Source: a phage
Direction: 5' to 3' (one strand)
Sequence record: PZ402303.1
Length of the DNA stretch: 39,329 nucleotides
The position numbers were made by a program, and so were the translations under genes. Positions 568 to 39,285 of the stretch are shown in pieces. Position 1 is the first letter of the stretch. Every line of letters starts with the position of its first letter. The notes beneath the pieces are model-generated. The model was not told where the DNA came from, searched no databases, and worked only from the letters and a program-made list of their open reading frames with translations.

Positions 568-1011
568 ATGCTCAAGAATTTAAAGAGCTACGCCATAATC
601 GCTGCGTTTGCCTTGGGTATTACCCTTGCGTATAACCACGGATATGACAAAGCTAACACTAAATGGGAACAGGAGGTGCACAATGAGTACGTTAAGAAAG
701 TTGAGGCGACTGCGGATAAACAGGCTGCTCTCAATGAAGTCTCACGACAATACCAAGAAGACCTTGCGGCGCTGGAAGGCAGCACTGATAGGGTCATTAA
801 TGATTTGCGTAACGATGGTAAGCGGCTGCGTGTCAAACTATCAGCCACCTCACGAGAACTCCAAGCTAACGGTGGATGCCTCGTTGATGGTCGAGCCGAA
901 CTTGACGAAGAGTTTAGTAAGCGTCTTATCGGAGTAACTCAAAGAGGGGATGCGTGGATTAAAGCGCTCCAAAATACAATAACTGAAATACAATCTAAGA
1001 AGGAGAAATAA
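568..1011 (+). CDS. 18.5: Rz-like inner-membrane spanin (gp18.5-like), 147 aa
   Basis: N-terminal TM helix, coiled-coil body, position after gene 18; RBS GGGAGGG. Confidence 0.85.
   Translation: MLKNLKSYAIIAAFALGITLAYNHGYDKANTKWEQEVHNEYVKKVEATADKQAALNEVSRQYQEDLAALEGSTDRVINDLRNDGKRLRVKLSATSRELQANGGCLVDGRAELDEEFSKRLIGVTQRGDAWIKALQNTITEIQSKKEK
683..937 (+). CDS. 18.7: Rz1-like outer-membrane lipoprotein spanin (gp18.7-like) embedded in +1 frame of 18.5, 84 aa
   Basis: ATG at 683 preceded by AGGAGG; lipobox-like VSGC; Pro-rich C-terminal part; embedded arrangement as in T7 Rz/Rz1. Confidence 0.8.
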   Translation: MSTLRKLRRLRINRLLSMKSHDNTKKTLRRWKAALIGSLMICVTMVSGCVSNYQPPHENSKLTVDASLMVEPNLTKSLVSVLSE

Positions 1012-1012
1012 T

Positions 1013-1570
1013 ATGGCTGCTACAAACTCAAGAACCCGCACACTCTGGACCATCAATGGTCGCTCACCAGACAGTCGTGATGTGTATGACCACAACAATA
1101 TTGGTATTCGCGTTGGGCGTATCGACATCCCAGCTTCGGAGATGGTCAAGGTAGATGGCTACTCTAAGGTTGAATACGTTGTTCAACTTAGCGATGGCAC
1201 CACTGAGCAACATGCTACGTTCGAGACCCTTATGTCCACTTGGGGTGGCTCCGTCGAGTCTAAGCCGGGAAGCGGGTTCATGACGGTGTTCCTGAATGAG
1301 CAAAGCACTGAGCGACTCGGTATGGTTCGAATCGACGTATACAAAGAGTGGACTGGTGCTGACCCTGAACCTGAAGGTGGCATGGCTTCCTTAGTTAGCG
1401 CAACGCTTTCTGCGTCTGATAGTGAATTTGGTACACAGTTCGTGGATAGCGAAGGGAAGAGCGCTTCCGTTATGTTCCAACCTAGTAACATCGACGGGGC
1501 TGTATCTAAGACCGACACTATCAAGGCTCTTGAGAAGCGCATTGATGCCTTAGAGAAATCTGCCAAGTAA
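1013..1570 (+). CDS. Hypothetical protein, 185 aa, no recognised family; mildly acidic, beta-rich with C-terminal amphipathic helix (KALEKRIDALEKSAK)
   Basis: Strong RBS AAGGAG 7 nt upstream of ATG; tightly packed between 18.5 stop (1011) and gene 19 RBS; no counterpart at this locus in T7 as I recall it. Confidence 0.7.
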   Translation: MAATNSRTRTLWTINGRSPDSRDVYDHNNIGIRVGRIDIPASEMVKVDGYSKVEYVVQLSDGTTEQHATFETLMSTWGGSVESKPGSGFMTVFLNEQSTERLGMVRIDVYKEWTGADPEPEGGMASLVSATLSASDSEFGTQFVDSEGKSASVMFQPSNIDGAVSKTDTIKALEKRIDALEKSAK

Positions 1571-1585
1571 CAATAGGAGGCCACA

Positions 1586-3343
1586 ATGTCTACTCAAGCA
1601 AACAAGAATGCGCTCATCGTGGCGCAACTTAAGGGTGACTTCGTGGCCTTCCTGTTCGTCTTATGGAAGGCTCTGAACTTACCTAAACCAACCAAGTGTC
1701 AGATTGATATGGCACGTACACTCGCTAATGGCGACCACAAGAAGTTTATCCTACAGGCGTTCCGTGGTATCGGCAAGTCCTTTATCACCTGTGCGTTCGT
1801 CGTGTGGGTCTTATGGCGTGACCCTCAACTTAAGGTGCTCATCGTGTCTGCCTCTAAGGAACGTGCTGATGCTAACTCCATCTTCATCAAGAACATCATC
1901 GACCTCCTTCCGTTCCTCTCTGAGTTGAAACCTCGACCGGGACAGCGAGACTCCGTGATTAGCTTCGACGTTGGCTTGGCGAAACCAGACCACTCACCCT
2001 CTGTGAAGTCTGTAGGCATTACTGGTCAGTTGACTGGTAGCCGTGCTGACATTATCATCGCAGATGACGTTGAGGTTCCCGGCAACAGTTCTACAAGCTC
2101 TGCTCGTGAGAAGCTGTGGACACTGGTAACTGAGTTTGCTGCGTTACTTAAGCCGTTACCTACCTCTCGTGTTATCTACCTTGGGACACCTCAAACCGAG
2201 ATGACTCTCTATAAGGAACTTGAGGATAACAAAGGGTACAGCACGGTAATCTGGCCAGCACAGTATCCACGTAATGATGCTGAGGCTCTCTACTATGGGG
2301 ACCGCTTGGCTCCGATGCTTAAGGCTGAATACGATGAGGGCTATGAGTTACTTCGTGGTCAACCTACTGACCCTGTTCGATTCGATATGGATGACCTCCG
2401 TGAACGTGAACTCGAATATGGCAAAGCTGGCTACACTCTTCAGTTCATGCTTAACCCGAACCTTAGTGATGCCGAGAAGTACCCGCTACGGCTCCGTGAC
2501 GCTATCGTGTGCGCTGTGGACCCCGAACGTGCCCCATTGTCTTACCAGTGGTTGCCGAACCGTCAGAACCGCAATGAGGAACTCCCTAACGTTGGTCTTA
2601 AGGGTGATGACATCCATGCGTTCCATACGTGCTCTTCTCGTACCGCTGAGTATCAGTCTAAGATTCTGGTCATTGACCCAAGTGGTCGTGGTAAGGATGA
2701 GACCGGGTACGCAGTCCTCTACTCACTTAACGGTTATATCTACTTGATGGAAGTCGGTGGGTTCCGTGGTGGTTACGATGATGCTACCCTAGAGAAGCTC
2801 GCTAAGAAGGCCAAGCAGTGGAAGGTACAGACAGTCGTCCATGAGTCCAACTTCGGTGACGGTATGTTCGGTAAGATTTTCTCTCCGATTCTCCTGAAGC
2901 ACCATAAGTGTGCCTTAGAGGAAATCCGTGCTAAGGGCATGAAGGAGATGCGAATCTGCGATACTATCGAACCGTTGATGGGTGCGCACAAGCTGGTAAT
3001 TCGTGATGAGGTTATTCGTGAGGACTACCAGACTGCTCGTGACCTTGATGGGAAACATGATGTTCGCTATAGTGCGTTCTATCAGATGACCCGTATGACC
3101 CGTGAGCGAGGCGCTGTGGCACACGATGACCGACTTGATGCTATCGCATTGGGTATCGAATGGCTACGCGAGGGGATGCTTGTAGACAGCCGTGTAGGTG
3201 AAGAAGAGATGACCCTTGAGTTCCTTGAACACCACATGGAGAAACAGACCATTGGTGGCGACCAGATTCATAGCTATGATGTAGGAGGTGTGGACATCTA
3301 CTATGAGGACGATGGGGACTCTAGCAGCTTCATTGAGTGGTAA
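1586..3343 (+). CDS. 19: Large terminase subunit / DNA maturase B (gp19), 585 aa
   Basis: High similarity to recalled T7 gp19 ([30 protein letters not shown]...TSFIEW); Walker A-like GIGKS. Confidence 0.95.
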
Positions 3344-37356: not shown

Positions 37357-39285
37357 ATGGCTAACAAAATTTCCACTGTGCGTACTTACCCACTTAATGG
37401 TGCCGTGAACTTCACAATCACCTTTGAGTATCTGGCCCGTAAGTTCGTGCAAGTAACCCTAATTGGTAAAGACCGTAAGGAACTGGTTCTCAATCAGGAC
37501 TACCGCTTTACCTCTAAGACGCAAATCACAACATCTCGTACTTGGACTGCCGCAGATGGCTACCAGATGATTGAGATTCGTCGATTCACTTCAGCTACTG
37601 ACCGTCTGGTTGACTTTGCTGATGGCTCTATTCTTCGTGCGTATGACCTGAACATCTCACAGATTCAGACGCTGCACGTTGCTGAGGAAGCACGAGACCT
37701 CACTGCTGATACTATTGGTGTCAACAACGATGGTCACTTAGATGCCCGTGGTCGTAAGATTGTGAACCTTGCGTTCGCTACCAATGACTATGATGCGGTC
37801 CCTCTGAAGCAGATTAAAGAGCGTGAGTCCTCTGCGTGGAGTGCTGTTACTAAGGCAAACGAACATGCTGACCGTTCTAATCGAGAGGCTAATCGTTCTC
37901 GTGATGAGGCTAACCGTGCTCAACGTGAAGCTGACCGTTCAACTCAACAGGCAGGTATCTCTACGGCACAAGCGGTTGAGTCCAAGAAGCAAGCTGACCG
38001 TTCCAACTCTGAGGCTAACCGTGCTAAAGGTTATGCTGATAGTATGACCGCAAGTGTCGCTGAGGCCAAGAAGCAAGCTGACCGTTCCAACTCTGAGGCC
38101 AATCGTGCCCGTGATGAGGCCAATCGTGCTGCCGGAGAAGTGACTAAAGCTGCTGCTGAGGTTGCCAAGGCTGCTGCACATGTGGCTACAGCTAAGGGAC
38201 ATGCTGACCGAGCCAACACTGAGGCCAACCGCTCCAAGAGTGAAGCCGACCGTGCAAAGACCGAGGCCGATAAGTTGGGGAACATGAATGACCTAGCAGG
38301 GACCATTGAGAGCATTGGAAGTAATGGTAAGGACATTAACTTCAAGGGAGGCGTTAATGGTAACACAATTCTTGCTAAGAACTCTGTACACGCTGGGGTT
38401 CAACCAAACACTGCGTTCTTCAGTGATAACACACTACGTCTTCGCAACCGTGACCACAAGGAACGCGCTTGGGACATCTTTGTTTGGGGTAATGATTCTG
38501 GACGGGGCAACGTACTGGAGTTCGGAACTAACTACGGTAAAGGGTATGGGATGTACTTGCAGTTTGCTAATGGTGACTCACAAGATTCCCAACTTCAGGT
38601 TAATGGTGCAATTGCAGCTAAGACAGATATTTATGGACGGGGCATCACAGCAAATGGGGAATTAATTACCCGATCACAAAACCTTAAGCTGATTAACTCT
38701 GCTCGTCGACATATTCAGTTCATGACTGCCAATAACTACACCGATGGTTATCTCTATAAAGACCCCGGTGCTGGTGCGTGGAGACTTAACTTTGGTCAGG
38801 CAGCTAACATGGAGTATACGTTTGCTTCAAACGGTCACTTGACATCTAACTCAGGGTGGAACATCCCACCAGATGGTAACCTATATATCAAGAAGTACGG
38901 AATGTACATTGATGCTTGGGTCAACAAGCGTCTGTCCGAACATGCCTACAACAAGGGTGAAGTTAACAACTTGGTCAACGGTCGCCTCACTGCTGGTCAA
39001 GGTGATGGTCGCTATGTCCGCAAGAACGCTGGGTGGGCTGAGGTCTGGAAAGGCTCTGCTGGTGGTGGTGTCTCTGTAGGTCTCTCTCAAGATGTCCGCT
39101 GGAGAACCATCTGGATTCAAACACAAGGTCGTTGGAACCCTGTTCAAATTGGGGACAATGGGGCTTACTATATCTCGTCTATGGGTGGGTGGTTGCAGTT
39201 CACCATCTCTAATAACGGTAGGACGTTCCGTAACGATGCAGACAGAGCTTCTGTTCCTACGAGAATCTTGGTTCAAACCCAATAA
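37357..39285 (+). CDS. 17: Tail fibre protein (gp17), 642 aa
   Basis: Conserved N-terminal tail-attachment domain (MANKISTVRTYPLNGAVNFTITFEYLARKFVQVTL...); long repetitive coiled-coil shaft; divergent C-terminal tip; RBS AAAGGAGG. Confidence 0.95.
   Translation: MANKISTVRTYPLNGAVNFTITFEYLARKFVQVTLIGKDRKELVLNQDYRFTSKTQITTSRTWTAADGYQMIEIRRFTSATDRLVDFADGSILRAYDLNISQIQTLHVAEEARDLTADTIGVNNDGHLDARGRKIVNLAFATNDYDAVPLKQIKERESSAWSAVTKANEHADRSNREANRSRDEANRAQREADRSTQQAGISTAQAVESKKQADRSNSEANRAKGYADSMTASVAEAKKQADRSNSEANRARDEANRAAGEVTKAAAEVAKAAAHVATAKGHADRANTEANRSKSEADRAKTEADKLGNMNDLAGTIESIGSNGKDINFKGGVNGNTILAKNSVHAGVQPNTAFFSDNTLRLRNRDHKERAWDIFVWGNDSGRGNVLEFGTNYGKGYGMYLQFANGDSQDSQLQVNGAIAAKTDIYGRGITANGELITRSQNLKLINSARRHIQFMTANNYTDGYLYKDPGAGAWRLNFGQAANMEYTFASNGHLTSNSGWNIPPDGNLYIKKYGMYIDAWVNKRLSEHAYNKGEVNNLVNGRLTAGQGDGRYVRKNAGWAEVWKGSAGGGVSVGLSQDVRWRTIWIQTQGRWNPVQIGDNGAYYISSMGGWLQFTISNNGRTFRNDADRASVPTRILVQTQ
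37984..38108 (+). repeat. In-frame direct repeat inside the tail-fibre shaft (two 41-bp copies, 39/41 identical)
   Basis: aagaagcaagctgaccgttccaactctgagg(c/t)(t/c)aa(c/t)cgtgc at 37984-38024 and 38068-38108, encoding KKQADRSNSEANRA; further degenerate ADRSN.EANR units flank it. Confidence 0.6.

Follow-up and report, generated by a model that had tools for sequence, protein, structure and literature searches.

A modular protein family encoded between the spanin and large terminase genes of T7-like phages, possibly an accessory fibre of the virion

Few viruses are understood as well as the T7-type phages, and several relatives of the phage studied here are under evaluation for therapy, diagnosis or biocontrol. 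The particle of the T7 group is generally taken to carry only six gp17 fibres. Here we ask what is encoded by a 185-residue gene situated between the spanin genes and the large terminase gene in a stretch of phage DNA of 39,329 nucleotides (sequence record PZ402303.1), referred to throughout as the window. This stretch is a circularly permuted form of the Escherichia phage nasanit (PV245933), with 100% identity over 3.4 kb, and the gene product is identical to a 'hypothetical protein' of that phage. Nasanit is T7-like, and its closest relatives in our search (BA14, 285P, FE44 and BSP161) all belong to the genus Berlinvirus. Unnamed GenBank copies of the gene date back to the deposits of Berlin (2006 accession) and BA14 (2008 accession), and the question has stood for as long. 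We refer to it as gene 18.9, after the annotation 'gp18.9' in Erwinia phage vB_EamP-L1, which is used here as a label for the slot.

Gene 18.9 (1013..1570, plus strand; phrog_20446) was taken from the list of open reading frames and comprises 185 codons plus a stop, with an ATG start. A Shine-Dalgarno sequence, AAGGAG, can be read at 1000..1005 on the plus strand, within the last codons of gene 18.5, and is spaced 7 nt from the ATG. The stop codon of gene 18.5 occupies 1009–1011, with the ATG of gene 18.9 positioned 2 nt downstream. The stop codon of gene 18.9 is at 1568–1570, followed by 15 nt and then by the start of gene 19 at 1586. The upstream neighbour is the i-spanin gene 18.5 (568..1011, plus strand; PF03245, E = 4.9e-7; phrog_1327, E = 5.8e-61), in which the o-spanin gene 18.7 (683–937, plus strand) is embedded according to the BA14 annotation of 18.5 and 18.7. 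The downstream neighbour, gene 19 (1586..3343, plus strand), is listed as an open reading frame for the 585-residue large terminase and is annotated as terL in all relatives. Further upstream lie the holin (PF10746) and small terminase (PF11123) genes, both of T7 type. A search for a sigma-70-type promoter or a terminator belonging to gene 18.9 gave no signal beyond chance in the region, and its GC content of 0.49–0.53 is the same as that of the flanks, as the initial annotation had suggested in calling the composition phage-like. These findings make gene 18.9 an ordinary gene of the late operon. The same GC values led us to reject a horizontally acquired island of odd composition.

Selection on the gene was measured by pairwise Nei-Gojobori comparison of 10 orthologues from BA14-like phages. 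The dN/dS ratio of the whole gene is 0.136, comparable to that of the terminase genes terL (gene 19; 0.106) and terS (gene 18; 0.118). In the same phages, the holin (gene 17.5) gave 0.074 and the i-spanin (gene 18.5) 0.339. Because its ratio is terminase-like, gene 18.9 is genuine, beyond a chance open reading frame, and it is constrained by purifying selection where it is retained. The spacing of the ribosome-binding site, the start and the downstream gap, on which the gene had been called well supported, were all confirmed, and the dN/dS ratio adds to them. When the gene is divided, residues 1–121 have a ratio of 0.106 and residues 122–185 a ratio of 0.247.

Two further candidates for this locus were considered and rejected. 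An antisense open reading frame at 1183–1584 is contradicted by the relatives' annotated genes in this region, which are all on the plus strand, and by a substitution pattern that fits the plus frame. A homing or selfish cassette was dismissed, as neither a nuclease motif nor a family match is present. The start codon of the gene has been placed differently in two relatives: the annotated start of the ETEP21B orthologue (L015, 1970–2458) is 23 codons too late, and that of Berlin ORF40 (L005, 2441–3097) is 20 codons too early, inside gene 18.5.

The product has a mass of 20.1 kDa and a pI of 4.82, and it contains no cysteine. No transmembrane segment was detected (the maximum Kyte-Doolittle value over a 19-residue window is 0.47), and there is neither a signal peptide nor a lipobox, in keeping with the mildly acidic protein without a transmembrane segment described initially. 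The 'two transmembrane domains' annotated for ETEP21B were rejected, since the window orthologue, which is 92% identical, has no hydrophobic stretch. Without a signal peptide or transmembrane segment, the protein is expected to be in the cytoplasm, which is the site of virion assembly.

Searches with the product returned no family from Pfam (E <= 1) or NCBIfam, and no lysis family was found among the Pfam and PHROG matches. The initial annotation had recognised neither a family nor a catalytic motif, and the lack of Pfam and NCBIfam matches agrees with this. PADLOC (E <= 1), which holds defence-system proteins and leaves anti-defence families outside, gave no match for the window protein, for the homologue P0007 or for L1 gp18.9. 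Neither the protein nor a 28-sequence profile retrieved any sequence from the Protein Data Bank. In structure prediction followed by Foldseek, as proposed in the initial annotation, the model matched only uncharacterised phage proteins in BFVD, and nothing in the Protein Data Bank at E <= 1e-3. In the accessible literature, we found no functional, proteomic, EM, structural or genetic data on gene 18.9, and the term 'gp18.9' matched no phage paper in a literature search.

The product matches phrog_20446 over its full length (E = 2.3e-126; residues 1–185 against positions 1–185 of the 185 in the profile), and residues 4–124 match phrog_27102 (E = 1.1e-46). Both families, as well as phrog_5004 discussed below, are of unknown function in PHROGs. 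By tblastn, the protein is present in 58 of 50,697 phage records, and the records whose taxonomy was read are all Berlinvirus except Helsettvirus YpEc11. The family is small: an HMM search of 1.8 billion representative proteins gave 31 matches, about 20 of which carry the N-terminal domain; these proteins are 188–300 residues long and come from T7-like contigs wherever the context is readable. An IMG/VR scan for the gene returned known isolates only. In the readable contexts, including those of the most divergent metagenomic members, the gene always abuts or overlaps the end of an Rz-like spanin gene and precedes terL. Every GenBank relative is annotated as 'hypothetical' or 'unknown product'. 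The initial annotation had named homologues of assigned function at this locus as the finding that would speak against something undescribed; homologues are indeed routine here in relatives, but no function has been assigned to any of them.

The slot between genes 18.5 and 19 is occupied in the window, BA14, Berlin and other Berlinviruses, and also in L1, Sibilus, JA10, Bubbas, pEp_SNUABM_04 and metagenomic contigs. Erwinia phage L1, Ningirsuvirus and related Erwinia and Pantoea phages encode slot proteins of 204–226 residues. Thus L1 gp18.9 and its Ningirsuvirus counterparts (Sibilus gp5 and JA10_048; phrog_5004) share with the window protein the same slot and a similar size, at 205–226 residues. 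The N-terminal domains of the two types align end to end (residues 1–119 of the window protein against residues 1–117, 24% identity), with an hhalign E-value of 0.042 that is not significant alone, and in Foldseek the window model matches the Sibilus protein with an E-value of 1.8e-5. Gene 18.9 belongs to a wider positional 'gp18.9' slot family of the Studiervirinae (phrog_20446, phrog_27102 and phrog_5004), which the initial annotation had missed. We found no prior recognition of this wider family, or of the modular, fibre-like build described below, in the sources searched.

Gene 18.9 is missing from T7, T3, Kvp1, A7 and pO103. Megablast similarity to T3 starts only at ~1575, just before the start of gene 19, and T3 has no counterpart of the open reading frame. 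Gene 18.5 adjoins gene 19 in Kvp1 and in Shigella phage A7, both of them close relatives. The earlier statement that 18.5 and 19 are directly joined in T7-type phages is therefore upheld, and the comparison of the junction, with the gene present in Berlinviruses and absent from T7 and T3, agrees with the earlier view of a late gene that is accessory in an otherwise conserved module. In A7 (L021, about 735–750), the start of gene 19 overlaps the stop of gene 18.5 (TAATG), and gene 19 uses the same AAGGAG as its ribosome-binding site. The A7 gene 19 has a divergent N terminus, and its junction is T7-style. In Kvp1 (L020, about 720–745), the gene is gone but the downstream intergenic sequence CAATAGGAGGCCACAATG is retained; the break lies at an ACAAT repeat, suggesting that the gene was precisely removed there by a secondary deletion. 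Phage Carena has an in-frame deletion of 330 bp between GCTTC repeats, which removes residues 43–152. The remnant (L004, 1013–1240) encodes 75 residues, in which residues 1–42 are joined to residues 153–185, and it is still annotated as a gene. Because it is internally deleted in Carena and cleanly lost in Kvp1, gene 18.9 is dispensable for plaque formation. Since A7 and Kvp1 both lack the gene, their published virion proteomes say nothing about the 18.9 product.

Alignments divide the protein into three parts: an N-terminal domain (residues 1–116), an acidic, proline-rich hinge with the sequence DPEPE, and a variable C-terminal part. The conserved N-terminal region, including the hinge at residues 117–121, is encoded at 1013..1375 (plus strand). 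The near-invariant residues are located in the N-terminal domain and at the start of the hinge, and comprise Thr-10, Trp-12, Arg-17, Asp-20, Ser-21, Asp-26, Gly-31, Gly-35, Gly-49, Tyr-50, Gly-62, Gly-103, Lys-111, Asp-117 and Pro-118. An AlphaFold2 model built with 28 sequences has a mean pLDDT of 79.9. In this model, the N-terminal domain is mostly β with one helix (pLDDT 75–92). The variable middle (residues 127–155; 1391..1477, plus strand) is predicted as a three-stranded β meander, with strands at 127–134, 139–145 and 150–155 and a pLDDT of only 57–72; in relatives, this place is taken by other modules, of tail-fibre type. It is followed by two predicted C-terminal helices, residues 157–165 and 168–184 (1481..1564, plus strand). 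The β-rich N-terminal portion and amphipathic C-terminal helix of the initial annotation are both reproduced in the model.

The last helix contains an amphipathic heptad pattern, Ile-170, Leu-173, Ile-177 and Leu-180, which is kept in many family members. Among 16 homologues, Ile-170 and Ala-179 are invariant, and Leu-173, Arg-176, Leu-180 and Glu-181 nearly so. The helix, which spans only about two heptads, is a candidate oligomerization element. In the metagenomic homologue P0004 (208 residues), the C-terminal unit is tandemly duplicated, as SNNIDGAVARTNTIKALEKRLDALEE and then PSNIDGAVSKTNTIKALEKRIAALEK. This suggests that the helix unit can be repeated, which would lengthen the distal part.

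Across the proteins analysed, the N-terminal domain is joined to at least five different C-terminal parts, several of which have recognizable relatives. In the metagenomic protein P0010, residues 114–165 align with residues 139–190 of gp17 from the same contig (E = 1e-4), and the alignment, which covers the hinge and shaft, begins exactly at the end of the gp17 tail-attachment domain. The segment after the hinge matches positions 140–245 of phrog_4242, 'tail fiber' (E = 5.5e-9), and P0010 also aligns with the gp17 of the window at residues 144–220. In P0007, the form found in a Yersinia pestis phage (256 residues), residues 123–218 share 32% identity (E = 4e-12) with a domain of a prophage tail fibre, a protein that carries phage_tail_N, gp37_trimer and Phage_tail_C_2 (Pfam, PHROG). 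A third case is the metagenomic chimera P0027, which combines an N-terminal domain of the Berlinvirus type (phrog_27102, E = 1.4e-14) with a C-terminal domain of the L1 type (phrog_5004, E = 5.3e-15). This chimera ties the N-terminal domain of the window protein to the L1-type, head-fibre-like module.

The L1-type C-terminal domain contains a YTKAEVD-type motif, which we take to be common in phage fibre proteins. A profile of six L1/Ningirsuvirus-type gp18.9 sequences matched a single sequence in the Protein Data Bank, crAss001 gp21 (7qof_l, residues 57–87; E = 4.3e-4), with the L1-type motif LASGADLATVISKVNEVISTL aligned to LATGAELATVVTKVNAILSAL of gp21. This link to head fibres is a motif of ~30 residues in the paralogous L1-type module, and it is absent from the window protein, which lacks the L1-type C-terminal domain with both its YTKAEVD motif and its head-fibre-like motif. 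The distal part of the window protein (residues 122–185) matched no fibre family; its sole outside match, phrog_1857, is insignificant at E = 0.08, and a search with the C-terminal 68 residues alone retrieved the Carena remnant only. Judged by these alignments, the 18.9 family is modular, with fibre-type modules in relatives, and the C-terminal half of the window protein is one of several interchangeable modules, a point missed in the initial annotation.

How closely does such a protein resemble known virion appendages? Phi29 head fibres are dispensable in the laboratory. In crAss001, gp21 is a trimeric head fibre of 97 residues. Its residues 1–38 are reported to bind the hexon pocket, and homology to the phi29 head fibre gp8.5 is reported for its C-terminal domain (PMC10172136). 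Both crAss001 gp21 (PDB 7QOF) and phi29 gp8.5 are small, non-essential fibres that bind the capsid through their N-terminal part and have a distal C-terminal domain. We took as the mark of a head fibre a C-terminal domain homologous to residues 226–280 of gp8.5 or residues 42–97 of gp21. The L1-type slot proteins share the ~30-residue motif with the C-terminal domain of gp21, but neither the window protein nor the family profile A2 has detectable similarity to gp21 or gp8.5 in the Protein Data Bank sequence search. The N-terminal domain of 18.9, with 120 residues, is also far larger than, and unrelated to, the 38-residue capsid-binding segment of gp21.

The T7-type tail fibre gp17 has its parts in the same order as 18.9, an anchor domain followed by an acidic or proline-rich hinge and a distal part, and P0010 has a hinge and shaft like those of gp17. 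In contrast, the N-terminal domain of 18.9 does not match PF03906, and BLASTP against the gp17 of the window gives an E-value of 3.5 at best. The 18.9 protein is one-third of the length of gp17, and it is conserved where gp17 tips vary. T4 fibritin (Wac) and phage L Dec are accessory proteins too; both are trimeric and dispensable, bind the virion through their N-terminal part and project from it with their C-terminal part. Their likeness to 18.9 is in layout only, as no sequence or fold similarity was detected. Nor was fold similarity detected to a solved capsid decoration protein (lambda gpD, L Dec, T4 Soc and Hoc).

Taken together, we tentatively favour the reading that 18.9 is a dispensable accessory fibre of the virion, whether on the head or as an auxiliary appendage of the tail, anchored by a new type of N-terminal domain. 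The reading draws on the combination of a conserved N-terminal domain with variable C-terminal parts, which is the usual layout of phage fibres, and on the three independent types of C-terminal module in relatives that are homologous to fibre proteins. Late synthesis in the cytoplasm and dispensability both fit an accessory fibre. Against it stand the short distal part of the window protein, which matches no fibre family, its helix of about two heptads, the small size and paralogous location of the head-fibre motif, and the near-constancy of the protein in the BA14 group. The N-terminal domain (residues 1–116), whose fold has no recognized relative, would dock on a conserved surface of the particle, on the capsid or the tail, and is accordingly named here as the putative virion anchor. 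From the DPEPE hinge, a short distal part consisting of the β meander and the amphipathic helix would oligomerize and project outward, and in other members of the slot it would be replaced by modules taken over from tail or head fibres. Such a fibre would probably confer a weak adherence that is not strain-specific, or a stabilization of the particle, in natural settings; this fits a gene that is under purifying selection and yet is lost without killing the phage. We infer the virion association, the anchoring role, the oligomerization and the adherence from sequence and predicted structure. Of the roles listed in the initial annotation, that of a virion accessory or decoration protein is the one favoured by the head- and tail-fibre modules of relatives, and no support emerged for lysis, packaging or anti-defence. 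More tentative still is the extension to the whole slot, namely that Berlinvirus, Helsettvirus, Elunavirus and Ningirsuvirus carry an unrecognized accessory fibre between genes 18.5 and 19, with an anchor of ~120 residues and exchangeable distal modules of head- or tail-fibre origin.

A fibre-like build could also serve a protein that is not retained in the particle. By analogy with T4 fibritin and tail-fibre assembly proteins, 18.9 might be a non-structural late helper, a chaperone or scaffold for gp17 attachment or folding or for tail assembly, acting through its fibre-like C-terminal part. Expression late, beside gene 17 and the packaging genes, would suit this, as would a gene that is dispensable but constrained, and the hinge and shaft that P0010 shares with the gp17 of its own contig could allow the two to co-assemble. 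We nevertheless regard such a helper as unlikely. No match to tail-fibre assembly families was found in Pfam or PHROGs, and JA10 keeps the slot gene even though a separate gene for tail-fibre assembly is annotated next to its fibre gene. Moreover, in the BA14 group the 18.9 protein is 91–98% identical but the gp17 tip only 55–94%, and a helper specific for the tip would not be expected to stay so constant while tips fall to 55%. The same contrast bears on the proposal that 18.9 is a strict host-range determinant, a second receptor-binding protein whose distal part recognizes a specific host receptor. The protein is 91–98% identical in phages whose isolation hosts are E. coli, Salmonella, Enterobacter and Erwinia and whose gp17 tips are very different, so that 18.9 does not behave like a strain-specific receptor-binding protein, and an external ligand, if there is one, would be conserved and not strain-specific. 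With a distal part of only about 60 residues in the window, and with Carena and Kvp1 viable despite their natural deletions, a second receptor-binding protein appears very unlikely.

The position of the gene could instead point to a late intracellular effector, which would modulate lysis timing or the spanins, modulate the terminase, or act in anti-defence or superinfection exclusion. In every readable context the gene abuts or overlaps the 3' end of the i-spanin gene, with terL following, and its polymorphism for presence and absence, together with allele replacement, is often seen in counter-defence genes. In phages without the gene, however, the same ribosome-binding site and junction are used for gene 19, and the coupling is therefore a property of the site rather than of the gene. 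The protein has no transmembrane segment, signal peptide or lipobox and no PADLOC, Pfam or NCBIfam match, and late expression is ill-suited to blocking defences that act early. Nor would one expect fibre-type modules, such as the YTKAEVD motif, gp17 hinge and head-fibre motif, in a cytoplasmic regulator. An effector of this kind is in our judgement improbable.

If 18.9 is an accessory fibre, no head or auxiliary fibre would have been described in the T7 group before it, and the accepted parts list of the T7-type particle would change. Adsorption, retention on surfaces or in mucus, particle stability or immune recognition could be affected, and foreign modules could be displayed on the fibre as a natural site where they are tolerated. 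Should the protein be absent from the particle, it would still be a constrained late gene with a new domain.

Several minor features of the window were also observed. In gp17 (gene 17, 37357–39285), the last ~270 residues are 55–94% identical among BA14-like phages (L001 and L009–L015), and in the same phages the products of terL and gene 18.9 are 91–99% identical. This indicates that the gp17 tip probably undergoes mosaic exchange independent of the flanking genes. The reading frame of gene 18.7 is +1 relative to that of gene 18.5, and gene 18.7 has its own AGGAGG at 671–676 and a lipobox-like MVSGC. The 98-nt gap between genes 18 and 18.5 contains a 10-bp stem-loop, AAGGCCACTACATCTAGTGGTCTT, at 481–504, with a T-rich run behind it. 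In phage ETEP21B the equivalent site bears the annotation 'terminator', and in T7 the RNase III processing site R18.5 occupies this position. Downstream of terL, the window has no open reading frame of at least 100 residues between 3482 and 5036. Some relatives carry a gene for an HNH homing endonuclease directly 3' of terL (ETEP21B, L015, 4264–4355; L033, 8551–8997).
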